This document shows positions 41,055 through 61,785 of a stretch of 64,000 bases of DNA, one piece after another. The position numbers and the translations under genes were made by a program. The notes under the pieces were generated by a model, which was not told where the DNA came from, did not search any database, and saw only the letters and a list, made by a program, of their open reading frames with translations. Origin of the DNA: an uncultured Chloroflexia bacterium. Its GTDB lineage: Bacteria; Chloroflexota; Limnocylindria; Limnocylindrales; CSP1-4. The number at the start of each line of letters is the position of its first letter. The stretch's first letter is position 1. The stretch lies in NCBI GenBank assembly GCA_963748625.1, contig CAVVJT010000010.1, positions 800,001 through 864,000 of the forward strand, read 5' to 3'.

Positions 41055-41136
41055 CACGCTGCCGGGAGCGGCGGTCACTCGGCCAGGACGGCGGTCACGC
41101 TGCCGGGAGCGGTGGTCACTCGGCCAGGACGGCGGT
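41055..41136. repeat. 41-bp tandem duplication spanning the stop codon of the ABC permease
   Basis: cacgctgccgggagcgg(c/t)ggtcactcggccaggacggcggt twice. Confidence 0.85.
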
Positions 41137-43677
41137 CGCGATCGGCTGCCTGCCGGCGATCCGTGCAGGCTGCGCCGCGGCAAGCATGGCGAGCGCCACC
41201 CCGAGGACCAGGGCGAGCCCGATCGTCGCGAACGGGATCTGGATGCCGCCGTCCGTCCTGCCCCCCGACGTCACCACCAGCAGGATCCCCAGGCCGATTC
41301 CCGCAAGCGAGCCCATCAGCGCTCCGATCGCGCCCAGGATGCCGGCCTCCACCAGCACGCTGCGCCACACCTGGCGACGGCTCATGCCGACCGCCCGCAG
41401 CACGCCCAGCTCGCGCGCGCGCTCGAACGTGTCCATCGAGAGCGTGTTCACGATACCGAGGGCGGCGATCACGACGGCCGCCATCGCGATGAGATCCAGC
41501 AGCCCGAAGACCCGGTCGAGCGCGTCCGACACGGCGCCCTCGATCTCGGTGACGGGCGCCACCGTCAGCGCGTACTCCGTGGCCAGCGCCGCCACCGCGG
41601 CCCCTGCATCGCCGTTCCCGGGCAAGGTGTCCCCGTACCGGACCGCGAACGAGTCCGCGCCGACCACGCCGAACGCCGTCTCGGCATCGGGCCAGCCCAC
41701 CAGCACCGTGTCGCCCGAGCGACCTGGGAATGAGCGGTCCACGAGACCCACGACCCGCAGCTCCACGAGGCCCTCGGCGGTGGAGATCGCCAGCAAATCA
41801 TCAAGCCCCACCCCCAGCTCCTGCGCCCGCGCCTGCGGCAGGATCATCGCGCCGCCCTGGTCAAGCGCCGCGAAGGCTGCGGAACGATCGCCGGCCAGGA
41901 AGCGCAACCGCCCGTCGGCCTCGAAATCGGCGCCCACGATGGCCGTCGCCTCGAGCCTGGTGCCGTCGTAGGCAAGATCGAAGGCCGCGAGCGGCGTCGC
42001 CGAGCCGACCCCATCGATGGCCGCCAGCTGCTCCTCCACCCCGCCCTCGCCCACCGGCGCCGGGGCGATCGCGGTCAGCACCTCGTCGCCGGGCACCACG
42101 TCGTACAGCCACGCGGTCGCCGTCACACGGGCGTTCGCCTGGACGGAGCCCAAGGCCACCACCATCGCGAGGCCCACCACGAGCGTGCCCACGGTCAGCG
42201 TGGTCCGGCTCGGGTCACGGGCGATGGCAGCACGGGCAAGCCGCTCCTCGAGGCGCAGCACGAGCGCGAACGGCGCCCCTGCGATCCGCCCGAGCGGTCT
42301 GAGCAGGACCGGCGTCAGCAGGACGGCGCCCAGGAGGACGCCATAGACCAGGACAGTGCGGGCCAGGCCCAGCGGTGACCCCTCCCCCACCGGCAGCAGG
42401 AGCAGCGCCACCAGGCCCATCGCGCCGATCACCACGATCAGCCAGCTGATGTGGGCGCGGGCCGCAGCCCCCGGATCGGAGCGGGCGCGCAGGGCGATGA
42501 CCGGCGCCACCGAGGCGGCCCGGCGAGCGGGCTCGGCGGCGGCGACCAGGGTCAGGACCAGCCCCACCACGAGGCCGGTCAGGAAGATCTCCGGCGAGAG
42601 GCGCGGCGCCTGGAGGTTGATGTTCCCGGACTGCCGCAGCCACCACGTCACCAGCTGCGCCAGGAGCACGCCGAACGCCAGGCCGGTGATGGAGCCGGCG
42701 ACACCGAGGACGAGTGCCTGGACCACGACCACGCGGACGATCTGGCCCCGGGCGGCGCCTGCGGCCCGCAGCAGGGCGAGCTCGCGGATGCGCTCCACCA
42801 CGGTCATTGCGAGCGTGTTGAGGATCATGAACGCGGCCGCGAACAGCGTGATCGAGGCCAGCAGGGCCATGGTGCCCCGGATGTCGGCGGTGGAGGCCCG
42901 CATGGCCGCGGCGAGGTCCCGCGGGACGCTGAGGACGTACGGCTCCACATCGAGCGCGTCGGAGAGAGCGGCCGTCACCTGGTCGAGGTCGGCGCCCTTG
43001 GCCAGCACAGCGTCGATCCGGGCCACGCCCGCGAGCGTGCCCTGGGGTGGTGGCGGGTCGCCGTCGAACAGCGCGAGCCGCATGGCCGTCTCGATCGGCA
43101 GGATCACCGTCCGCCCCGCGGCGTCGGCCACCGGCCCGTCGCCCGGGACGATCCCCACCACGCGCACCGACAGTGGCCGGCCGGCGCCCAGGATCGCAAT
43201 CCGCGAGGCGATGGTCAGGCCCTCCTCGGCGGCGAGGCGCTCCGTGATGAGGGCGGCCTCCTCGTCGGGCTCCTGGAGCGGCACCCCGGCCACGAGGGCG
43301 AGGTCGCGCACCTTGGGCTCGGCCGCCGGATCGATGCCCAGCACCGTGACCGGGTCGGTGATGACGGGCGTGCCGGGCTCGGACTCCAGGAACGCGCGGC
43401 GCTCGATGACCGGCGCGACCACCGCGATGCCGGGCACGGCGGCCAGGCGGTCCACGGTGGCGTCGGACAGGCCACCTTCCGCGAAGGCGGCGACGCGCAG
43501 GTCCGCGCGACCCACGATCGAGGCCACGGTCCGGTCGATCGCATCGTCCATGCCCGCGTCCACCGCGAGCGCCGCAACCAGCACGGCGACGCCGATGGCG
43601 ATGCCGAACACGGTCAGCAGGCTCCGCGCGGGCCTCGCGACGAGGCTCCGCCACGCGTACGGGAGGAGGCCGCGCAT
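41116..43677 (-). CDS. FtsX/MacB-like ABC permease (duplicated domain)
   Basis: Two NTLxMxxxERxRELxxLRA motifs, multiple TM helices, two large extracytoplasmic loops. Confidence 0.9.
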   Translation of the reverse strand: MRGLLPYAWRSLVARPARSLLTVFGIAIGVAVLVAALAVDAGMDDAIDRTVASIVGRADLRVAAFAEGGLSDATVDRLAAVPGIAVVAPVIERRAFLESEPGTPVITDPVTVLGIDPAAEPKVRDLALVAGVPLQEPDEEAALITERLAAEEGLTIASRIAILGAGRPLSVRVVGIVPGDGPVADAAGRTVILPIETAMRLALFDGDPPPPQGTLAGVARIDAVLAKGADLDQVTAALSDALDVEPYVLSVPRDLAAAMRASTADIRGTMALLASITLFAAAFMILNTLAMTVVERIRELALLRAAGAARGQIVRVVVVQALVLGVAGSITGLAFGVLLAQLVTWWLRQSGNINLQAPRLSPEIFLTGLVVGLVLTLVAAAEPARRAASVAPVIALRARSDPGAAARAHISWLIVVIGAMGLVALLLLPVGEGSPLGLARTVLVYGVLLGAVLLTPVLLRPLGRIAGAPFALVLRLEERLARAAIARDPSRTTLTVGTLVVGLAMVVALGSVQANARVTATAWLYDVVPGDEVLTAIAPAPVGEGGVEEQLAAIDGVGSATPLAAFDLAYDGTRLEATAIVGADFEADGRLRFLAGDRSAAFAALDQGGAMILPQARAQELGVGLDDLLAISTAEGLVELRVVGLVDRSFPGRSGDTVLVGWPDAETAFGVVGADSFAVRYGDTLPGNGDAGAAVAALATEYALTVAPVTEIEGAVSDALDRVFGLLDLIAMAAVVIAALGIVNTLSMDTFERARELGVLRAVGMSRRQVWRSVLVEAGILGAIGALMGSLAGIGLGILLVVTSGGRTDGGIQIPFATIGLALVLGVALAMLAAAQPARIAGRQPIATAVLAE

Positions 43678-43686
43678 CCCGGACGC

Positions 43687-44481
43687 CTACAGGCCCAGGA
43701 CGGCCAGGCGGGTGATCAGCGGGCCCGCGGCATGGTCCTCGCGGCGGCCCAGGACGATCTCGTCCTGGATCGTGCCGTCGCCCACCACGAGCACCCTGTC
43801 GGCGTAGGCGGCGGTCTTCGCGTCGTGGGTCACGAGCACCACCGTCTGGCCACGCTCCACGCACGTGCGCCAGAGCGCATCGAGCAGGTCCAGGCCCGTC
43901 TTGAAGTCCAGGTTGCCGGTGGGCTCGTCGGCGAACAGCAGGGCGGGGCGGGTGACGATCGCCCGCGCCACGGCGACGCGCTGCCGCTCGCCCGCGGAGA
44001 GCTCGTCTGGCTTGTGGCGCTCCTTGCCGGTGAGCTCCACGATCTCGATGGCCTCGCGCACGCGCCCCGCCAGCTCACCCTTGGAGGGGTCCTGGCCCGC
44101 GATCGTGAACGGCAGGCCGACGTTCTCCACCACGTTGAGCAGCGGCACCAGGTTGAACGACTGGAACACGAAGCCGGTTCGCTCGCGCCGCAGGCGGGTG
44201 GCCTGCTCGTCGTTGAGGTGGCTGATGGACTCGCCCTGGAGCAGGACCTCGCCCGACGTGGGGCGGTCGAGCCCGCCCAGGAGCTGGAGCAGCGTGCTCT
44301 TGCCCGAACCGGACGGACCCATGAGCGCCACGAACTCCCCGGCCATCACCTGCAGCGAGACGCCGCGGACCGCCTGGACCACCTCGCCCGGCATCGGGTA
44401 CTGGCGGGTGACGTTGCGCGCCTCCAGTATCGGCCGGTCTTCGGGCCGCGCGGCGGTCGCACCTGCGTCGGCGGCGGTCAT
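43687..44481 (-). CDS. ABC ATP-binding protein (LolD/MacB-like)
   Basis: GPSGSGKST, LSAGERQR, ADEPTGNLD, VTHD. Confidence 0.93.
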   Translation of the reverse strand: MTAADAGATAARPEDRPILEARNVTRQYPMPGEVVQAVRGVSLQVMAGEFVALMGPSGSGKSTLLQLLGGLDRPTSGEVLLQGESISHLNDEQATRLRRERTGFVFQSFNLVPLLNVVENVGLPFTIAGQDPSKGELAGRVREAIEIVELTGKERHKPDELSAGERQRVAVARAIVTRPALLFADEPTGNLDFKTGLDLLDALWRTCVERGQTVVLVTHDAKTAAYADRVLVVGDGTIQDEIVLGRREDHAAGPLITRLAVLGL

Positions 44482-44516
44482 GCGGTCTCCCGTCGAGTGC
44501 GGATCACGGCGGCTCC

Positions 44517-45503
44517 CTAGCGTCCGAAGTACTGCGCGGCGATGGCGTTGAGGATCGAGTCCACGAGGCCCACCTCAACGGGCCGGTCCACGATCGCAAA
44601 GGTCGTCCAGCCGGAGCCGGGCTCCTCGGTGGGGATCGGCACGGGCGTGGGCTCCTCGGACGGGCTCGCACTGGGCGTGGCGGCGGCCGGCGTGGAGATG
44701 GCGGACGCGGTGGGCGCGGCCGTCGCGAGCGGGACTGAGGGGCTGGGCGACGAGGTCGGCTTCTTCGTGGGCTTCGGGGTCCGCCTCGGCTTCGGGGTCG
44801 GCTTCGGCGTCGGTTTGGCGGTCCGTTGGGCTGTCGGCTTCGGCGTCGGCCGCTTCGTGGGCTTGGGCGTGGGCTTCGGGGTCGGCTTCGCCGTCGGTTT
44901 GGGGGTGGCGCCGCCCGATCCGCACTTGTCGGCGAAGAGGACGGTCCAGACGTACTTGTCCTCCGTCCAGCGGATGGCCCCCACGCCCACGACGTCCCAG
45001 GCCTTGCCCATGATGTTGGCGCGGTGACCCTTCGACTTCATCCACTCGTTGAACACGTACGTGGTGACGTCCGACTCCGAGGCGCCGGGCCATGTCACGG
45101 TCCCGATGTTCTCGCCCGCCACCTTGAAGCAGTAGTCGTACTTGTACTGCATGTACCAGAAGACTTCGTGGCTCGTGCCCTTGACCGTGTGCGAGAGGTA
45201 GTTGCGGTCCGCCATGTCCTCGCTGCGCCAGCGCGCGATGGAGCGGAGGGTGCTGTCGAGCTTGAGCGTGCGCAGGCCGGCCGATGCGCGGGCCTGGTTC
45301 TGCAGCGAGATCACCAGGCTCTCGGAGTCGCTGCTGTAGTTGCCCTCGGCCCAGGCGCGTGCAGGACCCGCGACGACCGCAAGGCTGGAGATTGCGAATG
45401 CGAGCGCAGTGACCAGCGCAACCCAGCGGCTGGTCAGCAGGCGGGCGATCCGCGGGCGAGCGGGCGACGGGCGGGCGATCGACGGGGCATGAGCGGGCGT
45501 CAT
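44517..45503 (-). CDS. CAP/SCP domain protein with (KPTP)n linker
   Basis: [29 protein letters not shown]; TM/signal at the N-terminus. Confidence 0.85.
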
Positions 45504-45590
45504 CGCCGTCCAGTGTCGCGCATGGCAGGCCCGGTGCGCACTCCACCGTTGAGGTCGCGGGAGGATGGGCGTCCGGACTACGCTGGGCCG

Positions 45591-46743
45591 ATGCACGTCG
45601 TGGTGATCGGGGGCGGGATCACGGGCACGGCCACGGCCGCGTTCCTGGCGCGGGCGGGCGCGCGGGTGACGCTCGTGGAGCAGGCGGGCCTCGCGTCGGG
45701 AGCGTCGGGTGCGAACTCGGGCGTGGTGTACCACCCGTTCGACGCGGTGCTCACCGCGCTGTACCACCCGACGGTCGCCCTGTACCGGGAACTGCAGGCG
45801 GAGGACGCCGGTTTCACCCTTGGCGTGGAGCCTGCCGGCGTGCTCTACGTGTCCCGCGATGGCGACGTGGTGCGCCTCGTGGCGTCGCGGATCCGGGCGT
45901 TGTTCCCCGCGCTGGCGGTGGACGAGGTCGAGGGTGGCGGCCTGCGCGCACTCGAACCCGCCGTCGCGCCGGATCTGCTCGCCTGTCGGGCTGGGATCGG
46001 GTTCCCCGTGGCTCCCGGGTCCGCGACCTACGCCTATGCCACCGTCGCGGAACGGGCCGGGGCGGTGGTGCGGGCCGGACGCACGGCGGCGCTGGCGGAG
46101 GTGGATGCGGCAGAGCCAGGCCGGAGGCCGTGTGGAGGGCGTCGTCGTCGATGGCGTCCTCGTCGAAGCCGATGCCGTGGTCGTTGCCGCGGGCCCGTGG
46201 ACGCCCGAGGTGCTGGACCCGGGCGGCACCTGGTCGCCGATCGTGCGCCGCTGGGGCGTGGTGGTGGAGGCGTTCCTGGGCGACGGGCCGCGACACGTGC
46301 TGGAGGAGGCCGAGGGCGAGGTGGACGTGGGTGCGGTGGAGCTCGTCGAGCCCGGCCTGCCTGAGCCTGTCGACCCCGGGTTCAGCCTCGTGCCCACGCC
46401 GGGCACGGCGTCGATCGGGTCCACGTGGCTTGCCGCGGAGCCTGACCCTGACGCCTGGACGGAGCGAATCCTCGAGCGGGCCGTGGCGTACGTCCCGTCC
46501 GTGCTGGACGCCCCGATCCGCGGCACCCGCTGCTGTGCCCGCCCGGTCAGCGTGGACGGCCGGCCGCTGGTCGGGCGGGTTCCGGGTCGCGAGAACGTGT
46601 ACGTGTGCTCGGGGCACGGACCGTGGGGGATCTCCACGGGGCCCGCATCGGCACGGCTGGTGGCGGACCTGGTGCTGGGCGGTTCGCCGCTCATCGATCC
46701 CGCACTGGATCCGGCGCGGTTCGGCGTGCCCGGCGGGAGCTGA
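45591..46743 (+). CDS. FAD-dependent oxidoreductase (DAO/glycine oxidase family), apparent frameshift ~46105
   Basis: [44 protein letters not shown]. Confidence 0.88.
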
Positions 46744-47306: not shown

Positions 47307-47978
47307 TTACGGAAGCTTGGTGGTGCCGAAGGTCTCGTACCAGTCGGCGGCGAAGGCGTTCACCGCCTGGGTGACATCAGGTGCCCCGAGAGCGGCGCGG
47401 AGCAGCGCCGGGGGCAGCGTGACGGCCGTGGCGCCCGCCTCGAAGGCCGCGCTCACCTGGGCCACGTTCTTGAAGCTGGCGGCCATGATCTTGCACGCCG
47501 CGCCGTGCCGGTCGATGAACTTGGCAAGGGACTTGATGGTGGCGCTGGTGTCGATGTCCAGGCTCTCCATCCGGTTGAAATAGGGCGCGATGTAGTCGGC
47601 GCCGGCCGCGATCGCGAGCATGCCCTGGGTCTTGGAGTAGATGGCGGTGGCGGTCACCCCGATGCCCTCGTCCTTGAGCAGCCGCATCGCGTGGATGCCC
47701 TGCTCCGTGGTCGGGATCTTCGCGTACACCTTGCCGTCGACCTGGTCGAGCAGGCGGTGGGCGTCGGCGACGATGCCGGCGGCGTCCTGCGCCAGCACCT
47801 GGATGTGCAGCGTCCGATCCGGGCCGATGATCTCGCGGATGCGGCGGAAGTGGTTGTAGAAGTCGATCCGGCCCTCGGCCTTGATGATCGTGGGGTTCGT
47901 CGTCACGCCTGCGACCGGGTAGAGCGGCGTCATCTCCTCGATGTCGCGCAGGTTGGCAGTATCGAACAGGATCTCCAC
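47307..47978 (-). CDS. fsa: Fructose-6-phosphate aldolase (transaldolase family)
   Basis: FDTAN, GVTTNPT, KIP Schiff-base Lys, HIQV (Gln) and IAPYFNR (Tyr), AASFKN. Confidence 0.85.
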   Translation of the reverse strand: MEILFDTANLRDIEEMTPLYPVAGVTTNPTIIKAEGRIDFYNHFRRIREIIGPDRTLHIQVLAQDAAGIVADAHRLLDQVDGKVYAKIPTTEQGIHAMRLLKDEGIGVTATAIYSKTQGMLAIAAGADYIAPYFNRMESLDIDTSATIKSLAKFIDRHGAACKIMAASFKNVAQVSAAFEAGATAVTLPPALLRAALGAPDVTQAVNAFAADWYETFGTTKLP

Positions 47979-48006
47979 TCGGTTCCTCGCTTCAGCAGCC
48001 CGGCCG

Positions 48007-48052
48007 AGCCGGGATGGACCAATCAACGCAGCCGGGATGGACCAATCAACGC
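48007..48052. repeat. 23-bp perfect tandem duplication spanning the stop codon of the HAD phosphatase
   Basis: agccgggatggaccaatcaacgc twice. Confidence 0.9.
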
Positions 48053-48720
48053 AGCAGGCGAAGCCGGCCTTCCCACACCACCTGCCGGAGGTCGGGAACC
48101 ACTGCCGCCTCATGAGCGACCGGCGCACCCGACCCGACGCGGACGATGCAGGCCACGCCGGCAGCGTGCGCCGCGGCGATCCCCGGCGTGGTGTCCTCGA
48201 AGACCGCGGCTCGCCCTCCACCGACCCCAAGCTGTCGGAGCGCGGACGCGTAGCCCTCCGGGTGCGGCTTGCCGCGAACGACATCGTCGGCGGTGATCAC
48301 GACCCGGGGCCTCGGAAGGCCGGCAGCGCGGATACGGGCATCGAAGAGCGCCGGGCTGGCCGACGTCACGACGGCCCAGCGGTCCGCAGGGAGGCGCGTG
48401 AGGAGCTCCAGGGCTCCTGGGATCATCCGGACGGTGTCGGCGTCCGCTATCTCGATCTCCTCGATGAGGTCGCAGCCCTCAGCCACGAGGTCACCGGGCA
48501 GCCAGGTCGCCACGGTGTCGGGCGATGTCCGTCCATTTGAAGCGGCGAGCACGGTGGCGCCGTCCAGGCCGAAGCGTTCTGCCCAGCGCCCCCACGACCG
48601 GTCCACGCTGGCAGCCGAGTCGACCAGGACGCCATCGCAGTCGAAGATGATCGCCTCGACGCCGGCGAGCAGGGCCTCGCCGGGAGAGGCAGGATCCGCG
48701 CCTGCCACCGACTCAGCCAC
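48046..48720 (-). CDS. HAD-IA sugar phosphatase (YfbT-like)
   Basis: IFDCDGVLVDS, WAVVTSA, GKPHPEGY, FED. Confidence 0.88.
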   Translation of the reverse strand: MAESVAGADPASPGEALLAGVEAIIFDCDGVLVDSAASVDRSWGRWAERFGLDGATVLAASNGRTSPDTVATWLPGDLVAEGCDLIEEIEIADADTVRMIPGALELLTRLPADRWAVVTSASPALFDARIRAAGLPRPRVVITADDVVRGKPHPEGYASALRQLGVGGGRAAVFEDTTPGIAAAHAAGVACIVRVGSGAPVAHEAAVVPDLRQVVWEGRLRLLR

Positions 48721-48782
48721 GGGGCGTGAGGAGCGGCTCGAGGCGGACGACCGGGTGTGCGCCCGCAAGCCCCGGAGCGGGC

Positions 48783-49922
48783 CTAGAACGTCGAGGCCAC
48801 ATCGATGACCCTGCCCTCGCGAGCGGACTGCTGTGCGGCAAGCATCACCTCGAGCACGTGCCGCGCGTGACGCCCACTCGCGATCGGCTGCACGCCATCG
48901 CGGACGCAGTCCGCAAGGTGCTCAATCAGGGACCCGCGCTGCAGCTCGGCGAACCGGTCGGATCCCACCGGGAAGATGTCGTAGCTCTGCGGCGTGATCC
49001 AGCCGCCAAGGCCGGGCGCTGCGTCAAGCCGGTACACCTCGACGGGCGGCGCTGCGACATCACCGCGGTTGACGAGGAGCGTGCCCTCAAGGCCGAACAC
49101 CTCCATGCGCGGGCTCCGCGAGGCGACCACGTTGTAGGTCCCGTCGATGACGGCGAATGTCGCCTCGCCGAAATCCAGGAGGAGCAGGTTGTTGTCGGGC
49201 GCCGTCACGGGAATGGTCACACCGTCGTACGGGCCGCCACGTGCAATCCGCGTCGGGACCGTGATCCCGGACATGGCCGACACCCGCTTGGCCGCACCAA
49301 GGACGCCTGTGGCCTGGGTGATGCCGTACACCGCCATGTCCAGGAGCGCACCGACGCCGTCCTTGTAGAACTGCGACGGATCGACCGGCCAGGAGAGTCC
49401 GGCGGCCCCGGCGTGCGAGGACTGCACCCGCGCGAAGGCGACCTTGCCGATCGCCCCCCGGGCGACAAGATCCCGTGCGCGCGCCCACTCGGACGCGAGC
49501 ATGTCGGCGGGCGCTGCCACGACGTAGAGGTTCCGGCGATCCGCCAGGTCGAGGAGCTCGTCGGCCTCGGCAAGCGTGGTCGTGATCGGCTTCTCCGTGA
49601 TGAGGTGGCGCCCGGCGTCGAGGATCTGCTTCGAGGCGGTGAAGTGCGCGGGGCCTGGCAGCAGGTTGACCACGGCGTCCAGGTCGAGCGCAAGCAGATC
49701 GTCCAGCGATTCGACCGCCCGGCCGATGTCGTGCGCCTCGGCGACGGCCCGCGCCTGGTCGATGCGCAGGTCGGCGATGGCGATCAGCTCTACCCGGTCC
49801 CGGATCTTGCCCAGGTGCGGCAGGTAGCCATAGCCGATGGTCGCGATCATGCCGGCGCCCAGGACGCCCACCCGCATGCGGGACCCGGCGGCAGGCTGGG
49901 CGGAAGGCATGTCTGCTGTCAT
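48783..49922 (-). CDS. Gfo/Idh/MocA oxidoreductase
   Basis: VGVLGAGMIA, TEKP, GALLDMAVY. Confidence 0.9.
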   Translation of the reverse strand: MTADMPSAQPAAGSRMRVGVLGAGMIATIGYGYLPHLGKIRDRVELIAIADLRIDQARAVAEAHDIGRAVESLDDLLALDLDAVVNLLPGPAHFTASKQILDAGRHLITEKPITTTLAEADELLDLADRRNLYVVAAPADMLASEWARARDLVARGAIGKVAFARVQSSHAGAAGLSWPVDPSQFYKDGVGALLDMAVYGITQATGVLGAAKRVSAMSGITVPTRIARGGPYDGVTIPVTAPDNNLLLLDFGEATFAVIDGTYNVVASRSPRMEVFGLEGTLLVNRGDVAAPPVEVYRLDAAPGLGGWITPQSYDIFPVGSDRFAELQRGSLIEHLADCVRDGVQPIASGRHARHVLEVMLAAQQSAREGRVIDVASTF

Positions 49923-51796
49923 GACCCGACTCCTTCGGCTGCGGGCGCCGCGTGCGCCATGCGTCCTCGCTCATCGGCGGCCCAGTTGCGCCGGTAGTTC
50001 GCGTAGTGGATGGCGCCGATCGCCTGGGCGAACTGGGCGACCGTGTAGGTCTCGCTGTCGCGCAGCTGGCGCATGAGGTCCGTGTTGGCCATCTCATCGT
50101 CGGCTACGGCAAGCCAGAGGGTGGGCGCGATGAACCGAGCCCCGCCGACCATCAGGTCGAAGCACGCCCGACGCTTCACGAGCCGGCCGAACAGGATCCG
50201 CTTCTGGACGGCCGGGTCCAGGAGCCACGCGGATTCGTGCCAGGCGACGGCCATGAATTCCCCGATCTCCCAGAAGATCCGGTCAACCGCCGGGTGACCC
50301 CCCTCCTCTGCCGCGGCCATCAGGAACTCGAGCAGCGGCTTGCGCATGTCCTTGGGCTCGGTCGGGACGAACACGCCGTCCTCGGAGACCGTGAGCAGGC
50401 CCCGCTCCAGGAGCTCGGCGAAGAGCGCCGGGTCCTCCTCGGGCAGGTACTTGGCCGCCAGCCGGAAGACGCCGCTCTGGCTCGTGTACTTCTGGAGCGT
50501 GCCGGCGAGCCGCGTGTTGAAGTTGTTGACGCTCCGGACGTCATCGGGGGCGTACTGGCGCTCGGGGTAGCTGCCGAGGTCGATGATGCAGTTGTAGATC
50601 TCGAGGGGGATGTCAGGAATGGTGCCGGCCTCCGTCACCCACCCGGTCCCGAGCTCCGTTCCGAGGGTGTGCGCGAAGACGCCATCGGCGATCGCCGCGG
50701 GGTCAACCACCCCGAGCTCCACAGCGGCGGTGAAGGCCGCCATCGGGCCGTCGTTGACCATGCCGACCACGCCGCCGGGCTTCACGAACGCCCGAAGCGC
50801 CTCGTCGAGGGTCGAGAGCCGCCGGAACTCGGCCTCGTAGGCGGGACCGAGGTGTTCCCGCATGCCGCGGGTCTTGTAGACCTCGCCACCCACGATCTTG
50901 TCGCGTACGACGACGTCCGGGAAGCAGACACCGATGGCATCAAGCCCGAATGGGGCGGACTGCAGCGCCTCCCCAGCGAGCACCGAGGCCTCGATCGTCG
51001 GGAGCAGGGCACCGCGGGCGAACGCCGGGGCGAGCACCTCCGCCATCGCCTCTGGGTCACAGGCACCCCTGACCCTCGCCCCATCGAGTCGCATCAGGCG
51101 GACGAGCAGCAGGATCGGGTCGATGATCTGGTCGATCTCGGTGAAGGCGGCCGGGAACCAGTCGTACTCCAGGAAGCGGGCGACCTGGCCATCGACGGCC
51201 AGGCAGAGCTTGATGTCGGTGCCGCCGATGTCCATGCCGCAGATCGCGGTCCCGTCCATGCCGCTGGTCGCCAGTGTTCCCAGCTCGTGGATCCGGGAGG
51301 CGGGAGCTGTCGCCTGGGCCGCGTCGGCCGGCGCGGCGTCGAGCATCCGGAAGCGGCCGCGGGACGGGCTGCCCGGTTCCGAGATGGCCTCGTCCATGCG
51401 CTCGGAGACATTGACGGCACGGCCGTAGCCGGGGCGCTCGAGCCGCGTTGCCTCGAGGCCGAAGGCCCGCTCGAATGCCGCAGCCAGCTCGGCCCCCTCG
51501 CCATCGTCGCCCTCCGCCTGGAGCGCGATGCCGCGGCCGCCGAGCGTGGAGATGATGTTGTAGCAACCTGCCAGGACGTACTCCGTGACCATCGCCCGCT
51601 CGTCATCTGCCAGCGCCGCGAACCTCGGCAGGCGGAAGAAGAAGGCCTTGCCAGCCTCGTCGAAGCCGTCGAGCGAGGCCGTCAGGACGAACGAGTCCGA
51701 GGGCGGCAGCGCATCGAACCGCTCACGCACGGAGCTGATGTACACGGGTCGGCCCGCTGCGGCGGTGTCGACCAGATCCCGGATGACCTGGCTCAT
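49919..51796 (-). CDS. Long ROK/ASKHA-like putative sugar kinase
   Basis: GMDIGGTDIK, GVCFP, VNDGPMAA, TLGTELGTG; about 625 aa with an N-terminal extension. Confidence 0.7.
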   Translation of the reverse strand: MSQVIRDLVDTAAAGRPVYISSVRERFDALPPSDSFVLTASLDGFDEAGKAFFFRLPRFAALADDERAMVTEYVLAGCYNIISTLGGRGIALQAEGDDGEGAELAAAFERAFGLEATRLERPGYGRAVNVSERMDEAISEPGSPSRGRFRMLDAAPADAAQATAPASRIHELGTLATSGMDGTAICGMDIGGTDIKLCLAVDGQVARFLEYDWFPAAFTEIDQIIDPILLLVRLMRLDGARVRGACDPEAMAEVLAPAFARGALLPTIEASVLAGEALQSAPFGLDAIGVCFPDVVVRDKIVGGEVYKTRGMREHLGPAYEAEFRRLSTLDEALRAFVKPGGVVGMVNDGPMAAFTAAVELGVVDPAAIADGVFAHTLGTELGTGWVTEAGTIPDIPLEIYNCIIDLGSYPERQYAPDDVRSVNNFNTRLAGTLQKYTSQSGVFRLAAKYLPEEDPALFAELLERGLLTVSEDGVFVPTEPKDMRKPLLEFLMAAAEEGGHPAVDRIFWEIGEFMAVAWHESAWLLDPAVQKRILFGRLVKRRACFDLMVGGARFIAPTLWLAVADDEMANTDLMRQLRDSETYTVAQFAQAIGAIHYANYRRNWAADERGRMAHAAPAAEGVGS

Positions 51797-51827
51797 CAAG
51801 AAGCTCCGAAGGGCCGCCGGGGCGACC

Positions 51828-52736
51828 TCACCGTACGGCGAGACCCCGTTCGGCAAACAGGGAACGAAATGCGTTCATCTCGGCCGGCGAGTACGAGGTC
51901 GTGACATCGGCGAACTCGTGGGGCATCCCCATGCGCCGGTACTTCGCGCTCGCGAGCGGGTTGAAGTTGATGAGCTCGACCGGCAGGGCAGGGTCGATCT
52001 CCGCCACGAGGTCGGCGATCGCGCCGAGGTTCTCCGGCGTGGCCGTGTAGCCGGGGACGAGCGGCACCCGCACGAGGATCCGTCCCGTGTCCTGGAGCGC
52101 CGCGGCGAGGCGGCGCAGATTGCCGAGGATGAGCTCGTTCGAGACACCCGTCGCGACCCTGTGCGCTTCGGGATCCGCGACCTTCACATCCACGATGAAC
52201 AGGTCGATCACGGGCAGGAGCGGCTCGATCGAGGACCACGGTGCGTGGAACGATGATTCGAGCGTCGTGGGCAGACCCTGTTCCTTGAGGGCGGCCGCCG
52301 TCTCGAGCACGAACGCGGCCTGGGCAAGCGGCTCGCCGCCCGAGAACGTCACGCCGCCCCCGGAGACCTCGTGGAAGATCGCGTCGCGCCCGACCTCGGC
52401 CACCACCTCGTCCGTCGTGATGTCGCGGCCGTCCAGCGCGAGCGCGTTGCGGGGGCACGCCTCCACGCAGTCGCCGCACTGGGTGCAGGCGGCATGGTTG
52501 ATGTCGACGCCGGTCGGCGTCAGCGTGATCGCCTTGGTGGGGCAGACCTCGGCGCAGCGGCCGGAGTGGCCGCACAGGTTCTCGAAGTGCCACAGCGAGA
52601 TGCTGCGATCGAGCCCTTCGGGGTTCTGGCACCACCGGCACCGGAGGGGACAGCCCTTCAGGAAGACGGTGGTGCGGATCCCGGGCCCGTCATGGACGGA
52701 GAACCGCTGGAGGTCGAAGATCCGGGCCGAGCTCAC
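51828..52736 (-). CDS. Glycyl-radical enzyme activating enzyme (radical SAM, ferredoxin-like insert)
   Basis: HDGPGIRTTVFLKGCPLRCRWCQNPE, CTQCGDCVEACP, GGVTFSGGEP. Confidence 0.95.
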   Translation of the reverse strand: MSSARIFDLQRFSVHDGPGIRTTVFLKGCPLRCRWCQNPEGLDRSISLWHFENLCGHSGRCAEVCPTKAITLTPTGVDINHAACTQCGDCVEACPRNALALDGRDITTDEVVAEVGRDAIFHEVSGGGVTFSGGEPLAQAAFVLETAAALKEQGLPTTLESSFHAPWSSIEPLLPVIDLFIVDVKVADPEAHRVATGVSNELILGNLRRLAAALQDTGRILVRVPLVPGYTATPENLGAIADLVAEIDPALPVELINFNPLASAKYRRMGMPHEFADVTTSYSPAEMNAFRSLFAERGLAVR

Positions 52737-55106
52737 GAGTCTTCGTAGCTGGTCCGCGCGATGATCTCGTTCTGGAGATCCTCGGCAAGCTCGGTGAAGT
52801 AGGCCGTGTAGCCGGCGACGCGGATCGTCAGGTTCCGGTACTTGTCCGGATCCTTCTGGGCGGCGATCAGGTCATCGCGGGTGACCACGTTGAACTGGAC
52901 ATGGTTGATGCGAAGCCGGACGAACCCGCGCAGCATCGAGGAGAAGGCGGCGGCCCCCTCCTCGGACTTGAAGAGGCGCGGCAGGAACTTCATGTTGAGC
53001 AGCGTGCCGTTGCTGCCCAGGTAGGAGTCCACGCGCGCCACGGACGAGAGCAGCGCGGTCGGGCCGCGGTGATCGCGTCCGTAGACGGCGGACATGCCGC
53101 CATCGGCAAGCGGGCGCCTTGGCGGGGCGGCCGTCAGGCGTCGCGCCGACGTTTGCGCCCATCGGGACGTGGGCGCTCACGGTGTAGAGGCCCGTGTGGT
53201 ACCGGCCACCGCGATAGTTCGTGCGGCCCTCGAACTTGGCAGCGAAGTAGTGGACCCACGTGTTGCCGATCTCGTCCACCCACTCGACGTCGTTGCCGTA
53301 CTTGGGCGCCTTGTTGATGAGGATGTGCTGGAGCTCCTCGTCCTGCGCGTAGTTGGTCTGCAGCGCCGCGACCAGGCGGGCCTTGTCGACGGTGCCCTCG
53401 TCGAAGACGAGCTTCTTGACCGCCGCGAGGCTGTCCGCGACGTTGGCCACCTGGATGACCTGGATGCCGGACAGGTTGTAGTGCGCGCCGCCGCGCGTGA
53501 CGTCGAGGCCGCGGTCGAGGCAGTCGTCGATGACCGAGGACAGGAGGGCAGACGGGAGGAGGCGCTGGTGCATCTCCTCGACCTTCTCGCACGCCTCGAT
53601 CATCTTCTCGAAGAAGTAGTCGATCTGGACGGCAAAGGCCTGCTCGAGGTCCTCGTAGGTCGCGAAGTCGGTGAGATAGCCGGTCTGCGGGCCGAGCTGC
53701 GCACCCGTGAGGAGGCACTTGCCATCGTTCATGGCGAGCTCGAGCGCCTTGACGAGGTTGAACATCGCCGCGTCCGACCACCCGAGGGTGTTGCCGTGGG
53801 TGGTGAGCTCGACGCAGCCGACGATCGCGTAGTTCACGGCGTCGGCCGGCGCGATGCCCTGGGCCTCGAGGGCCGGGATGATGGACTCGTCGTTGAAGAC
53901 CTGCGGCATGCCGGAACCCAGGCCGATCACGCGCGTGCACTCGTCGAGGAGCGCGTCAGGCGTGTGCTCGTGGAGCCGGGCGGAGAGGTTGGGCTGCGGC
54001 AGGAGGATGTGGGCCTGCGCCTCGAGGAACAGGTACGAGAGGTCGTTCGACTCGTCCCGGCCCTGCTCGTCACGGCCGCCGAGGGCGACATTGAAGCCGA
54101 TCGGGAAGCCCGCGAAGAACGATGCGCTGTGCGAGTTGCGCAGGTACACGATCTGGTTGAACTTCAGCCAGAGCGCCTCGATCAGCTCGAGGGCGCCTGC
54201 CCGGTCCAGCCGGCCGGCGTCGACGTCCGAGCGGTAGTAGGGGTAGAGGTACTGGTCCGCGCGACCCGGCGAGAACGACGAGGCGTTGCTCTCCATGTGG
54301 AGCAGGGTGAACAGGAACCAGAGTGACTGGACCGCCTCGTGGAAGGTCTCGGCGCCGCCGACGGTGAGCTTGGTGCAGATCCGGGCAACCTCGCGCAGGT
54401 TGGCCGCTCGCTCGGGCGTCTCGGCCGTCGCCGCCATCGCGTTCGCGAGCTCGGCATACCGGCCCATGAAGTCGATCGATGCATCGAGGACGACCAGCAC
54501 GGAGTCGTAGAACTCACGCTGGTCGGGCGCGGCGCTCGCGGCCCGGGCCGCCGCCTCCGCGCGGAGGCCGGCCGGACCAAGGCGGATCCACTTGGCCGTG
54601 TCCGGGCAGATGTGGCCCTGGGCGTGGTCCTTCTGGTTGATCTTGACGACTTTGGCGATCGCGTCGAGAAGCGGGCCATCCTCGGCCCGAAGGGTGTCCT
54701 CGAGCGTCTTGCCCTGCCAGTACGGGAGGATCCGCTCACGGAAGGTGGCGGCATCCTCGGGGTGGACGTTGAACTTGTCCTGGGGCCGCGTCGCCATCGT
54801 GTCGAGCTCGCGGTCGATCCAGCTGATCCCGGCCTCCGGGAAGACAACCCCACCGCGGACACCGGTCGTGCGGTTGCCGACGATGAGCTCGTCCGGGTCG
54901 ATGTGGATCTCGAGCCTGCGCATCGATTCGGCGAGCGACAGGGCGCGCTTGAGGGCTGCGCTGGCGCCCTCATGCGACTGGTAGACGTCCGTGATGATGA
55001 GCGCCTGCTCAATCGACAGGTAGCGCGGCTCGTCGAGCATGCGCTCCTTCAGATCGACGATGCGCTGTGTCAGTCCAGCCTGCGTGGGGTGCTCTGCCAG
55101 GGTCAT
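52733..55106 (-). CDS. pflD: Glycyl radical enzyme, PflD-like; one apparent frameshift ~53110
   Basis: ELIVGNRT, TRPQDKF, INQKDHAQGHI, ESNASSFSPGR, GCVEL Cys loop, YTVSAHVP, and RVAGY glycyl loop in the shifted frame. Confidence 0.85.
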
Positions 55107-55313: not shown

Positions 55314-56192
55314 TCAGTCAGCGAGACGGGCCCGACGGAAGGCGCTCGGCGTCGTCCCCGCGAGGTCCCGGAAGACGCGGGCGAAGTACTTCGGATCATC
55401 GAACCCGACCCGCTCGGCAACGTCGTCCACGGTCAGGCGCTGGTCCGCAAGGAGCAGCTTCGCCTTGTCGATGCGGACGATGTTGCGGTAGTGCATCGGC
55501 GTCACGTCCATCTTCTTCTTGAACAGCCGGAACAGGTAGCTCGGGCTCACCGCGACCTGGGAGGCGAGCTCGTCGATGTCGAAGTCGCCCGCGTAGTTCT
55601 CGTGGATGTAGCCGAGACACCGCTCCACCAGCATGTTCGACTCGCGCGCCGGCTCCGAGAAGTGCTGGCGCACCTGGAGGAAGATCGCCTTGAGGTAGGC
55701 GGAGATCAGGTCCTCGGAGCAGGGCCGGTTCGCCGTGAACTCCGCATACACCATCTCGAACAGCGACCGCAGGTTCCCGCGCTCGTCCATGAGCTTGATC
55801 GCGTGCCCGAACGTCTCCGTGGGCCCGGTGTCGGCCCACAGGCAGATGATCTCCTGGCGATGTCGCAGATCGAGGTGCTCCGCGTGCTCGAGCTCGGGCG
55901 GATAGATCACGACGTCAAATCCGAGGACGTCGACCGACTCGTCGCCGGCGTCGATGTTGGCCTTCCCCTCGAGGAAGAAGATCAGCTCGAAGAACCGGTG
56001 CGAGTGCTTGCTGAAGTTCCAGATGCGGCTCTGCTCGTCGAAGCGCTCGCAGAACTGCAGCGTCGCATGCTCGATGTTCGTGCCCGCCAGGTACTGGCAG
56101 ATCGACTCGCGCTCGACCGGCTCGGCCCTGGCATGCGTTGCGTCGGAACTGGAAGCCCCTGCTCGACCCCGCGTCCGGGCCTCCGCCGCCAT
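55314..56192 (-). CDS. AraC family transcriptional regulator
   Basis: Cupin HSH..E N-domain; SPSYLFRLFK, VAERVGFDDPKYFARVF..GTTPSAFR. Confidence 0.93.
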   Translation of the reverse strand: MAAEARTRGRAGASSSDATHARAEPVERESICQYLAGTNIEHATLQFCERFDEQSRIWNFSKHSHRFFELIFFLEGKANIDAGDESVDVLGFDVVIYPPELEHAEHLDLRHRQEIICLWADTGPTETFGHAIKLMDERGNLRSLFEMVYAEFTANRPCSEDLISAYLKAIFLQVRQHFSEPARESNMLVERCLGYIHENYAGDFDIDELASQVAVSPSYLFRLFKKKMDVTPMHYRNIVRIDKAKLLLADQRLTVDDVAERVGFDDPKYFARVFRDLAGTTPSAFRRARLAD

Positions 56193-56194
56193 CG

Positions 56195-57193
56195 TCAGAG
56201 CTCGACCCGGGTACCGGTCTCGGCCGCCTCGCGGACGGCGAGCGCGACCTGCGCGGCCTGCAGCCCCTCGAGGCCCGTGACGACCGGCCGCGCTGCCTCG
56301 CCGTGGACGGCGGCAGCGAACCCGCTCACGTTGATGTCGTAGAGGTCGCGGCGGTTGGGGATGTCGACCTCCCGCTCGCCGGATGCATCACGCACCACCA
56401 CGGTTCCGATCGGCTCCTGCGTCATGACGTTGGTCGCGAGGATCGCGCCGTCCTCGCCGATGACGTGGATCCCGGTCGGAGCATAGGCGACGGTGAAGGC
56501 ATCGTGCGTCTGCACGAGGACCCCGTTGGCGTAGCGCATCGTCGCCATGAGCGCGTCCTCGGCAGCCGACTCCCAGGAGCCCTGCTTGGTCGAGAGCGCG
56601 ACCACATCGACCGGCAGCTCGCCGACAAGTGGGTTGATGACCGCGGCATCGTGGCACGTCACGTCCAGGGCGACGCCGCCGCCGGCCTTGCTGGCAAGAC
56701 GCCAGCCCTGGAGCCGCGGCGGGAGCATGACCGCATGGAACACGCGGATCGCGAGCAGCCGGCCGATGGCCCCCGCCTGCACCAGCTCCCGGATCGTCCG
56801 GTGCGTGTCGCAGCCAGGGAGATGATGGTTCGTGCCCAGGATCACGCCTGCCGCCTCGGCCGCGGCCAGCATCGCCTGGCCGTCCTCGACGGACAGGGCG
56901 AGCGGCTTCTCGGCGAGGACGTGTTTGCCGGCCCGGGCCGCGAGGATGGCGTGGTCGCGGTGGAACTCGTTCTTGGTGCTGATGTAGACCGCATCCACGT
57001 CGTCGCGCGCAACGAGGTCCTCAACGGTGCAGCCCACGGGGATCCCGTTGCGGTCCGCGTAGGTGGCGGCCCAGTCCGCGGTGGGATCGCCGACGGCCGT
57101 CACCTCGTGGCCCATCCGGCGCATGGCCGGGATCATGCGGGTGGCGGCGACGTCGCTGGCGCCGATCAAGCCCCAGCGCAGTGTTGCAGGCAT
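56195..57193 (-). CDS. afr: 1,5-anhydro-D-fructose reductase-like Gfo/Idh/MocA enzyme
   Basis: RWGLIGAS, EKPLA, LGTNHHL, RVFHAVMLPPRLQGWRL, GGGVALDVTCHD, HDAFT, NVMTQEP; matches my recall of Ensifer/Sinorhizobium Afr motifs. Confidence 0.82.
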   Translation of the reverse strand: MPATLRWGLIGASDVAATRMIPAMRRMGHEVTAVGDPTADWAATYADRNGIPVGCTVEDLVARDDVDAVYISTKNEFHRDHAILAARAGKHVLAEKPLALSVEDGQAMLAAAEAAGVILGTNHHLPGCDTHRTIRELVQAGAIGRLLAIRVFHAVMLPPRLQGWRLASKAGGGVALDVTCHDAAVINPLVGELPVDVVALSTKQGSWESAAEDALMATMRYANGVLVQTHDAFTVAYAPTGIHVIGEDGAILATNVMTQEPIGTVVVRDASGEREVDIPNRRDLYDINVSGFAAAVHGEAARPVVTGLEGLQAAQVALAVREAAETGTRVEL

Positions 57194-57221
57194 GGCGTTC
57201 GCTCCTCGTGGCGTGGGCGGC

Positions 57222-58820
57222 TCAGACGACCTTGCCCGCACGCATGATGGCCGCACCCTTCTCGCCGACCATGATCGACGGGGCCTGGGTGTTGCCGCTG
57301 ATCAGGGTGGGCATGATCGAGGCGTCGATGACGCGCAGCCCGCCGAGTCCGTGGACCTTGAGCTGCGTGTCGACCACCGCCATCGGGTCAGAGCCCATCT
57401 TGCAGGACCCGACCGGGTGGTAGTCGGTCTTGGACCACTCCTTGATGTACTCGCGGACGGCCTTCTCCGACTTCACGTCCTTGCCGGGCAGGCGCTCCCT
57501 CCGGATCAGACCCTTGAACGCCGGGGCGTTGATGATCTCGCGCCCGCGCTCGAAACCCTCCATGGAGATCTTCCAGTCGTAGGGGTCCTGGAGGAAGGCG
57601 GGGTCGATCGCCGGCTCCACCGTGGGATCCGCCGACCGGAGCGTCACCGAGCCGATGCTCTTCGGGCGCAGGTTGCAGGTGTTGATGGTGACGCCGTGGC
57701 CCTTGATCCGCATGCGGCCGTGGTCCACGACGTACGCCGGCAGGCAGTGGATCTGGATGTCGGGCGAGCGGACGTCGCTGCTCGACCGCAGGAACGCGCC
57801 GGCCTCGGCGACGCAGGCGGTCACCGGCCCCGTCTTGTAGAGGAGGTACTGGATGCCATGGCGGGCGGCCTTGTCCCACCGGTCCTCGCCGTTGTAGCTC
57901 ACCGGCGCGGTCTCGGCCGTCAGGTACACGTCCATGTGGTCCTGGAAGTTCTTGCCGACGCCCGGCAGGTCGTGCACCACATCGACGCCGAGCGCGCGCA
58001 GCTCGTCCGCCGGGCCGATGCCCGACAGGAGCAGCAGGCGGGGCGAGTTGACAGCGCCTCCCGAGAGGACCACCTCGCCGCCTGCCTGGATCCTGGCCTC
58101 GGCGGGCTTGCCGCTGTGCAGGTACTGGACCCCGACGGCCCTGCCGCCCTCCGTGAGGACCTTGGTGGCCGTTGCGTGGGTCTCGATGACGAGGTTCTTG
58201 CGGCCCTTGGCCGGACGGAGGAACGCCGTCGCCGCGCTCTCGCGGCGGACGTTGCGCTGCGTGACGTCGTAGTAGCCCACGCCGTCCTGCTCGGCGCCAT
58301 TGAAGTCATGGCTGAACGGGATGCCGAGCGTCTGCACGGAGCGCACGAACCCCTTGGAGATGGGGTTGTGCGAGACCTGTTCGGTGACGTTGAGCGGGCC
58401 GCCGGTGCCGTGGAACTCGTTGGCGAGACGCTCGTTGTTCTCGGACTTCGTGAAGTACGGCAGGACGCCGTCGTAGCCCCACCCCTCGTTGCCGAGGTCG
58501 CGCCACTCGTCGTAGTCGAGCCGGTGGCCGCGGATGTAGATCATCGCGTTGATCGAGGTGCTGCCCCCCAGGGTCCGGCCCTGCGGGTAGTGCATCCGGC
58601 GATCGTTGAGCTGCGGCTGCGGCACCGTGCTGAAACCCCAGTTCACGTCCGGGCTCGTCAGCTTGGTGAAGCCGGCCGGCATGTGGATGAGCGGATTGTT
58701 GTCGGGTCCGCCGGCCTCGAGGAGCAGGACGCGATTGGCGGGCTCCTCGCTCAGGCGGGCGGCGACGACGCAACCCGCCGCACCGGCCCCGACAACGATG
58801 TGGGTGTAGCGCTGGCTCAT
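57222..58820 (-). CDS. GMC oxidoreductase (choline/alcohol dehydrogenase-like)
   Basis: VGAGAAG, GRTLGGSTSINAMIY, GKNFQDH, YHPVGSCKMG, GNTQAP. Confidence 0.93.
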   Translation of the reverse strand: MSQRYTHIVVGAGAAGCVVAARLSEEPANRVLLLEAGGPDNNPLIHMPAGFTKLTSPDVNWGFSTVPQPQLNDRRMHYPQGRTLGGSTSINAMIYIRGHRLDYDEWRDLGNEGWGYDGVLPYFTKSENNERLANEFHGTGGPLNVTEQVSHNPISKGFVRSVQTLGIPFSHDFNGAEQDGVGYYDVTQRNVRRESAATAFLRPAKGRKNLVIETHATATKVLTEGGRAVGVQYLHSGKPAEARIQAGGEVVLSGGAVNSPRLLLLSGIGPADELRALGVDVVHDLPGVGKNFQDHMDVYLTAETAPVSYNGEDRWDKAARHGIQYLLYKTGPVTACVAEAGAFLRSSSDVRSPDIQIHCLPAYVVDHGRMRIKGHGVTINTCNLRPKSIGSVTLRSADPTVEPAIDPAFLQDPYDWKISMEGFERGREIINAPAFKGLIRRERLPGKDVKSEKAVREYIKEWSKTDYHPVGSCKMGSDPMAVVDTQLKVHGLGGLRVIDASIMPTLISGNTQAPSIMVGEKGAAIMRAGKVV

Positions 58821-58845
58821 CTGGATCTCCGGAACGCAGGTGGGA

Positions 58846-61782: not shown

Positions 61783-61785
61783 CGG

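Follow-up and report, generated by a model that had tools for sequence, protein, structure and literature searches.

The DNA analyzed here, hereafter the window, is a stretch of 64,000 nucleotides from an uncultured Chloroflexia bacterium (contig CAVVJT010000010.1, positions 800,001 to 864,000). At 49919–51796 on the minus strand, it carries a gene for a protein of 625 amino acids that we call X. The open reading frame (ORF) list, the homologues, and an AlphaFold2 (AF2) model identify X as a ROK-fold protein of an unannotated family and a candidate anhydro-sugar kinase. A first-pass annotation of the window, made from the letters alone, had placed the gene at exactly these coordinates and directly behind the gene for a glycyl-radical enzyme (GRE) activase, and both statements proved correct; the coding strand is the minus strand, the plus-strand translation being ridden with stop codons. 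The activase stop (51828) and the X start (51796) are separated by a gap of 31 nt, a GGAG sequence lies 7 nt 5′ of the ATG, and the protein, which runs to a stop at 49919, begins with MSQVIRDLV. At its other end, the X stop and the start of a Gfo/Idh/MocA oxidoreductase gene (48783–49922, minus strand, assigned through Pfam) share the letters ATGA. An alternative TTG start at 51856 would give a product of 645 residues and overlap the activase gene; it is unsupported because the homologues of 622–626 residues begin at the same methionine as the ATG at 51796. The plus-strand ORF at 49952–51904 is a shadow ORF of the kind usual where the G+C content is ~69%.

The activase gene (51828–52736, minus strand) encodes 302 residues with Radical_SAM and Fer4 domains and scores 302.8 bits against TIGR02494 (cut-off 174). 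Next to it, 52733–55106 on the minus strand encodes a PflD-like GRE that is split over two frames, with the PFL-like part (675 bits) in ORF 52872–55106 and the Gly_radical domain in ORF 52733–53095. One extra C in a C-run at ~53111–53115 is absent in three related loci (L002, L004, and L005) and from the contigs of relatives in four of four metagenome runs. The frame break reflects an error of the assembly or else a frameshift peculiar to the strain. None of the sequencing runs searched holds the strain of the window, the largest share of words being 0.22.

Predicted structure of X

The AF2 model of X, built from an alignment of 26 sequences, reached a pLDDT of 88.8 and a pTM of 0.89. Comparison by VIA and Foldseek identified residues 183–604 (49985–51250, minus strand) as a ROK-like ASKHA kinase core. 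This region was superposed by VIA-align on N-acetylmannosamine (ManNAc) kinase (PDB entry 6jdb) with a Z score of 24.0 and a root-mean-square deviation (rmsd) of 2.8 Å, 285 of 290 residues being aligned; the ROK core is therefore complete, with insertions of ~137 residues. The top 47 VIA rows are all sugar kinases or ROK repressors. Foldseek against the PDB returned 3vgk first (E = 4.7e-10, TM 0.68 on the target, probability 1.00), and its first ranks are ROK glucokinases, N-acetylmannosamine kinases, and ROK repressors. Among the known ROK kinases, NanK (6jdb and 2yhy), the Streptomyces griseus glucokinase (3vgk), and an Enterococcus glucokinase (2qm1) have cores that superpose on X with Z scores of 22.6–24.0 and rmsd values of 2.8–3.7 over 285–304 residues, and their DxGGT, ND...E, and LGTG motifs follow in the same order. 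These data confirm the first-pass proposal of a ROK-like ASKHA sugar-kinase fold, for which structure prediction and Foldseek had been suggested as checks. They do not bear out its description of X as a double-length ROK protein: there is one ROK core and no duplication, and the extra length consists of a new N-terminal domain and the ~137 inserted residues.

The N-terminal domain spans residues 1–178 (51263–51796, minus strand) and adopts, according to AF2, VIA, and Foldseek, a fold without a known relative. Folded alone by AF2, it reached a pLDDT of 89.3. A wide VIA comparison with 48161 PDB chains gave a best Z score of 4.3 and none of 5 or higher, the best Foldseek match had an E value of 0.15, and a search of the named Atlas clusters returned no usable match. 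A degenerate ASKHA half was considered for this domain and rejected, since ParM, Ta0583, and 2yhw reached Z scores of just 3.3–4.0, which is too weak. The first-pass annotation had described an N-terminal region of ~180 residues lacking an obvious helix-turn-helix (HTH), and indeed neither VIA nor Foldseek found an HTH-like structural match. Because 76 of 80 related loci (described below) match X from query residue 12 or earlier, nearly all members of the family carry the domain.

Conserved motifs

Motif conservation was assessed in 26 sequences of 48–92% identity, ranging from Chloroflexota to Spirochaetota and Bacillota. The motifs were placed on ROK by eye, through their order and spacing, both of which fit ROK, and hhalign agrees for the ND and LGTG motifs. 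The PHOSPHATE-1 motif DIGGTDIK (residues 189–196; 51209–51232, minus strand) is invariant. NDGPMAAF (residues 348–355; 50732–50755, minus strand) is the conserved equivalent of the ROK "ND...A..E" motif with its catalytic aspartate; Asn-348, Asp-349, Gly-350, Met-352, Ala-353, Ala-354, Phe-355, and Glu-360 are all invariant. The PHOSPHATE-2 motif TLGTELGTGW (residues 377–386; 50639–50668, minus strand) is invariant as TLGTELG.GW. The first-pass claim of ROK/ASKHA phosphate motifs within ~625 residues thus extends to the family. Mapping by eye places FGRLVK (residues 536–541; 50174–50191, minus strand; FGR.VK invariant) at the site of the ROK adenosine motif GGGV.

Further invariant stretches are FPDVV (residues 292–296), VGGE.YKTRG (302–311), and AQFAQA.G (587–594). 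Cys-545 is the sole invariant cysteine of X, and with one such residue, the protein has no Fe-S or zinc site. The ordinary ROK proteins of the same genome carry both the ExGH and the zinc motif.

Sequence family

A word-indexed protein search with X found at least 1235 homologues at E ≤ 0.001 among 8000 candidates scored. Of the 120 best matches, 118 have no Pfam domain, and every source name among them is "hypothetical protein." A profile search of 1.84 billion representatives returned 391 clusters (50% identity) at E ≤ 0.001, with 163 of them at E ≤ 1e-30. Together with the confidence of the AF2 model, these numbers put X well beyond a chance ORF. Identity between X and ROK kinases is 13–19%, and a scan of the whole genome with PF00480 recovered four other ROK genes, X not being among them. 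In the Atlas, clusters of the ROK family rank directly behind the unnamed clusters of X itself (score 0.93). The claim that X represents a new family holds in the sense that curated sequence models (Pfam and NCBIfam) miss it. Based on the structural model, X is most likely the founding-type member of a family of unannotated ROK-fold sugar kinases that are invisible to sequence models and carry a novel domain.

Fusions of the activase to X occur in three protein clusters, P0117 (890 residues), P0120 (854 residues), and P0200 (901 residues). The activase part has no ferredoxin-like insert in P0117 and P0120 and retains it in P0200; comparison of P0117 with P0200 gives only 30% identity for their X parts. 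In these proteins, the activase C terminus meets the N-terminal domain of X nearly without a linker. The divergent fusion P0200 has more canonical ROK motifs, LNDGNAAAY and SGGII, the latter at the FGRLVK site. At the level of sequence, this pattern suggests an old fusion event or repeated ones. Fused forms of 1095 residues or longer were also sought and none was found, which is weak evidence.

Short members of 435–441 residues (P0151, P0154, and P0212) start just before DxGGT and have no N-terminal domain. In metagenomes, P0212 as the query recovered no relative, and when the same protein was compared with 401 genomes of the phylum of G403, one of five other X-holding genomes (G401–G405), only the ordinary X of G403 was recovered. 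Among 401 genomes sampled from the phylum of the window, X is present in one, the genome of the window itself, and three genomes of the same genus are without it. Such a rare and patchy occurrence of the family is what one would expect of a transferable catabolic module.

X loci in other genomes

A scan of one genome per species yielded at least 357 stretches encoding a relative of X among at least 598 pattern matches. The best 80 were kept as loci; counts over 81 loci refer to these and the window. The best 80 fall into Bacillota/Clostridia (30), Spirochaetota (29), Chloroflexota (10), Planctomycetota (3), Propionivibrio (3), Anaeromyxobacter (2), unclassified genomes (2), and a Gemmatimonadetes contig (1).

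When the window proteins were used as tblastn queries, the activase was found directly upstream of X in 64 of the 70 loci with at least 1 kb of upstream sequence, and a GRE in all 59 loci with at least 3.5 kb. The strict order GRE-activase-X is kept in 52 of these 59. Two of the exceptions, L013 (split gene) and L056 (overlap of 1–2 nt), fail through the way of counting alone. In L029 and L042, GRE and activase lie on the opposite strand; in L043 and L047, the GRE stands just downstream of X and the activase has no match; and in L070, a GMC gene separates activase and X.

The 81 loci were also searched with Escherichia coli proteins (tblastn, E ≤ 1e-5). Matches were found to pflD in 71 loci, to pflC in 70, and to yijO in 37; none of the 81 holds a match to the genes of the sugar phosphotransferase system (PTS) ptsA, frwC, frwB, and frwD. 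Co-occurrence with PflD-like GREs in PTS-lacking loci, which the first-pass annotation had named as a check, is thus seen in 59 of 59 testable loci with PTS genes in 0 of 81.

ATP-binding cassette (ABC) importer parts of the Peripla_BP_4/BPD_transp_2/ABC_tran type are present in 37 of the 45 loci of at least 15 kb, and equally many (37/45) hold at least one gene of the shikimate-dehydrogenase-like, GMC, Gfo, or zinc alcohol dehydrogenase types. The commonest neighbor of the GRE-activase-X triad is the shikimate-dehydrogenase-like gene (26/45), which often follows X directly; examples are L010 11944–12888, L062 11803–12663, L070 11834–12697, and L074 4581–5441. In some loci, an HbpS-like gene comes next after it. 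With the window included, AraC-type regulators occur in 34 of the 46 loci of this length, GMC in 13, and Gfo in 8. Other kinases are scarce: PfkB appears in 2 of the 45 loci, and a kinase-like gene besides X in two of nine Pfam-annotated loci (PfkB in L074 and BcrAD_BadFG in L035).

Partner glycyl-radical enzymes and the E. coli counterpart

The GREs adjacent to X form a clade of their own, with identities of 59–92% to the L002 enzyme within the clade, 39–46% to E. coli PflD, and 33–39% to YbiW. The intact L002 GRE scores 631 bits to 8id0 (PflD type), 592 bits to E. coli PflD (8yjo), and 581 bits to glycerol dehydratase.

X also travels with closer relatives of the E. coli enzymes. In the Propionivibrio locus L070, it is clustered with a GRE that is 68.5% identical to E. 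coli PflD over the full length, together with a PflC-like activase, an ABC importer, and GMC, shikimate-dehydrogenase-like, and HbpS-like genes. The PflC match of this locus (7263–8133) runs in two frames, PflC 1–89 at 7263–7523 and 84–292 at 7507–8133, a probable frameshift in the metagenome-assembled genome. A second GRE, 50–59% identical to E. coli YbiW, lies within 10 kb of X in 19 of the 80 loci and 17 of the 45 long ones (L017, L019, L022, L025, L031, L038, L042, L045, L048, L051, L056, L057, L059, L061, L062, L063, L065, L071, and L072). This YbiW-like GRE often stands beside a DeoR regulator.

E. coli K-12 has two clusters of this kind, gldA-fsaB-ptsA/frwC-frwB-pflD-pflC-frwD/yijO (AraC) and ybiY-ybiW-ybiV (sugar phosphatase)/fsaA. 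According to a review, YbiW and PflD cleave a C–O bond of 1,5-anhydroglucitol-6-phosphate and 1,5-anhydromannitol-6-phosphate to give 1-deoxyfructose-6-phosphate, which aldolases then split (PMC13450708). According to a second source, both E. coli pathways start with phosphorylation by the PTS, and an enzyme of the 1,5-anhydrofructose reductase type makes anhydromannitol (PMC12441222). X therefore travels with close relatives of both enzymes that need 6-phosphates, in clusters that import through ABC systems and have no PTS. The first-pass annotation had placed X in a PTS-free setting, and with no PTS gene found in 81 loci, the X loci correspond to the frw-pflDC cluster of E. coli in a form free of the PTS.

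Other genes of the window

All of the following genes lie on the minus strand. Behind the Gfo/Idh/MocA gene, which also directly follows X in the Chloroflexota loci, come a HAD-family hydrolase (48046–48768; PF00702 and PF13419) and a fructose-6-phosphate aldolase (FSA; 47307–47978), the latter scoring 283.5 bits against NF009299 (cut-off 214) and being 39% identical to E. coli FsaB over 47313–47978. As listed, the FSA ORF covers 47307–48284 and encodes 325 residues from an ATG at 48284, with an N-terminal extension of ~100 residues that overlaps the HAD ORF; its true start is probably 47978, because the FsaB match begins there. That the operon holds FSA together with a HAD hydrolase points to phosphorylated intermediates.

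On the other side of the GRE, Pfam assigns an AraC-family regulator (55314–56192), a second Gfo/Idh/MocA oxidoreductase (56195–57256), two GMC oxidoreductases (57222–58820 and 58846–60366, together 57222–60366), and parts of a sugar ABC importer (60784–63989), namely a pair of BPD_transp_2 permeases and, reaching toward the window end, an ABC ATPase. 1,5-Anhydrofructose reductase is itself a Gfo/Idh/MocA enzyme. The cluster has a G+C content of 0.65–0.70 versus 0.72–0.75 a few kb off, and may have been acquired horizontally.

Further downstream, a 725-residue protein with a CAP (cysteine-rich secretory protein) domain is encoded at 44517–46694, and a MacB-like ABC exporter pair at 41116–43677 (FtsX/MacB_PCD) and 43687–44481 (ABC_tran). 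These genes (41116–46694) appear to be unrelated to the sugar cluster.

Discussion

We consider it probable, with appreciable room for doubt, that X is a dedicated sugar kinase that feeds PflD-like GREs and takes the place of the PTS in a pathway of the "anhydroglycolysis" type. The analysis establishes the fold of X, the conservation of its motifs, and its synteny, as well as loci in which PTS genes are absent and other kinases largely lacking. From them, we infer a kinase activity, its phosphoryl donor, and its placing before the GRE; substrate and 6-position are assigned by analogy, because the substrate of the partner GRE is itself inferred. In the proposed route, a sugar or anhydroalditol would enter unphosphorylated through the ABC importer. 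Neighboring GMC, Gfo/Idh/MocA, or shikimate-dehydrogenase-like dehydrogenases may interconvert related forms, and could do so among 1,5-anhydroglucitol, 1,5-anhydrofructose, and 1,5-anhydromannitol. X would act as the phosphoryl-transfer enzyme, with ATP as the most likely donor and O6 as the most likely acceptor, and the PflD-like glycyl-radical isomerase (where present, also the YbiW-like one) would then open the ring. In the window, FSA could cleave the product.

The closest functional parallel would be the E. coli Frw PTS (frwCB-pflDC-frwD/ptsA/fsaB), for which the proposed role is the same, namely to supply a phosphorylated anhydro-sugar to a PflD-type GRE. In E. coli, frwD lies right behind pflC, the place that X occupies behind the activase, and an AraC-type regulator is found near both; in the window, FSA is too. 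The proteins are unrelated, however: Frw operates by phosphoenolpyruvate-driven group translocation, whereas X is proposed to act as a soluble kinase after ABC import.

Several observations weigh against this assignment. X matches no Pfam family at E ≤ 0.01, nor at E ≤ 10, and no NCBIfam model at E ≤ 1. When PDB sequences were searched with a profile of the family alignment, no match was significant (best E = 0.46); the ROK glucokinase 2qm1 appeared at E = 0.51, aligned on the DxGGT stretch alone. With hhalign, X compared with three ROK proteins of its own genome reached a nonsignificant E value of 0.084 against a ROK profile that is shallow at three sequences; the correct motifs were paired in this alignment, NDGPMAAF with NDA..ALGE and TLGTELGTGW with LGTGxGG. 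As the first-pass annotation had noted for the ExGH and cysteine-rich zinc motifs, the 26 sequences have neither the ExGH sugar-binding motif nor the zinc motif CxCGxxGC, and FGRLVK replaces the GGG of the adenosine motif. Together with the missing PF00480 match, the ~137 inserted residues, and the 178-residue N-terminal domain, these features set X apart from the ROK kinases on which its core superposes. The N-terminal domain carries a conserved polar motif, R121-x-G-Y-G-R-x-x-N129-V-x-x-R133, that is invariant as R121.GYG...N129-V..R133.

Points of genomic context pull in the same direction. The X-linked GREs are a clade apart from both PflD and YbiW. FSA is found in 0 of the 45 other loci of at least 15 kb and in 1 of 81 overall, the window alone, and TIGR00875 (FSA) scores over its cut-off in none of the five other X-holding genomes (those of L004, L017, L035, L049, and L062); one of them has matches of 154 bits, below the cut-off, and two have none at all. 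The fate of 1-deoxyfructose-6-phosphate in those organisms is thus unaccounted for, and of the linkage to GRE and FSA loci foreseen by the first-pass annotation, the GRE part stood and the FSA part is not general. At least five phyla share the order GRE-activase-X, a rigidity that hints at a closer tie to the activase than a pathway kinase would require, and the three clusters of activase-X fusions, which a pure pathway kinase would not predict, hint at the same.

Some of these points would be better served if X were a kinase of the same pathway with a different sugar as substrate or a different place in the sequence of steps, acting for instance on 1-deoxyfructose after a GRE working on the free anhydroalditol, on 1,5-anhydrofructose, or on a polyol or cyclitol of unrelated kind that the ABC system brings in. 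With identities of only 39–46% to PflD and 33–39% to YbiW, the X-linked GREs need not use a phosphate ester; the ROK fructokinases 3lm9 and 1xc3 are among the structural matches (Z = 21.3–21.6); and the commonest neighbor is a shikimate-dehydrogenase-like gene, with FSA missing from most loci and genomes. We nevertheless regard this alternative as unlikely, though worth keeping in view, as X also occurs with the 68.5% identical PflD orthologue of L070 and with the YbiW-like GREs of 19 of the 80 loci, whose E. coli counterparts take 6-phosphates, and it is the sole kinase-like gene seen with either. The fixed gene order and the fusions would instead suit a partner of the activase or GRE, that is, a ROK-like accessory protein that senses sugar or ATP, gates, assists, or repairs radical installation, and docks through its N-terminal domain. 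That the fused X parts are 30% identical, that the ferredoxin insert differs between the clusters, and that almost no linker is left would all fit such a role. But E. coli PflD and YbiW function without any X, a GMC gene splits activase and X in L070, forms of ~435–441 residues dispense with the N-terminal domain, and the kinase catalytic motifs are invariant. Moreover, the known GRE accessory subunits (HPAD gamma, BSS beta and gamma, and MASS delta) are small Fe-S or rubredoxin-like proteins with conserved cysteine ligands (PMC13450708), whereas X has 625 residues and one invariant cysteine, hence no Fe-S or zinc site. A primarily accessory function is accordingly improbable to us. The predicted complex of activase and X scored 0.00, which gives no verdict and counts neither for nor against binding. 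An Fe-S activator of the "archerase" type (HgdC-like) was also considered, given an ASKHA fold beside a radical enzyme, and rejected on the single invariant cysteine and the best matches being sugar kinases; 1hux appeared in the PDB profile search at E = 2.1.

ROK proteins include repressors as well as kinases, and X could in principle be a noncatalytic sugar sensor or regulator of the Mlc/NagC kind, lacking an HTH and acting on the AraC regulator or on transport. Mlc, NagC, and Lmo0178 resemble X in joining a ROK core to an extra N-terminal region, and such repressors (Z = 19.3–23.9; 1z6r at 19.3 and 5f7r at 23.9) score as high as the kinases. Their N terminus, however, is a winged HTH of ~80 residues, to which nothing in the 178-residue domain of X corresponds, the phosphoryl-transfer motifs of X are all invariant, and an AraC regulator is already part of the clusters in 34 of 46 long loci, so that we find this possibility highly improbable. 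A broader idea, which would keep X as the pathway kinase, is that it also docks on the activase through its N-terminal domain and couples the availability of ATP or substrate to the installation of the glycyl radical. We hold this to be improbable; if true, GRE, activase, and X would form a three-part machine, and glycyl-radical systems would gain in X their first accessory protein that is not of the Fe-S kind.

Anhydro-sugar kinases of the ASKHA fold do exist: AnmK and levoglucosan kinase use 1,6-anhydro sugars, whose ring they open in the course of phosphorylation. Neither is among the listed structural matches of X, which is no proof of distance, and X has no match to the Pfam AnmK family. 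No paper of the literature searched contains the term "anhydroglucitol kinase" or the term "anhydromannitol kinase"; the primary paper on the pathway, outside that search, may discuss such clusters. In the 2026 GRE review, the word "kinase" appears once, within the title of a reference (PMC13450708).

Radical "anhydroglycolysis" has been described for E. coli with a phosphorylated sugar supplied by the PTS (PMC13450708 and PMC12441222). If our assignment of X as the dedicated kinase is true, its family would provide the phosphorylation that the route has been missing in PTS-free anaerobes among the Chloroflexota, Spirochaetota, Clostridia, Planctomycetota, Anaeromyxobacter, and Propionivibrio. 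With a name for the family, at least 1235 proteins could be annotated, and a third PflD-related GRE clade would gain a marker. X would also add to the ROK-fold kinases a member that has neither the zinc nor the ExGH motif and that carries a domain of new fold.

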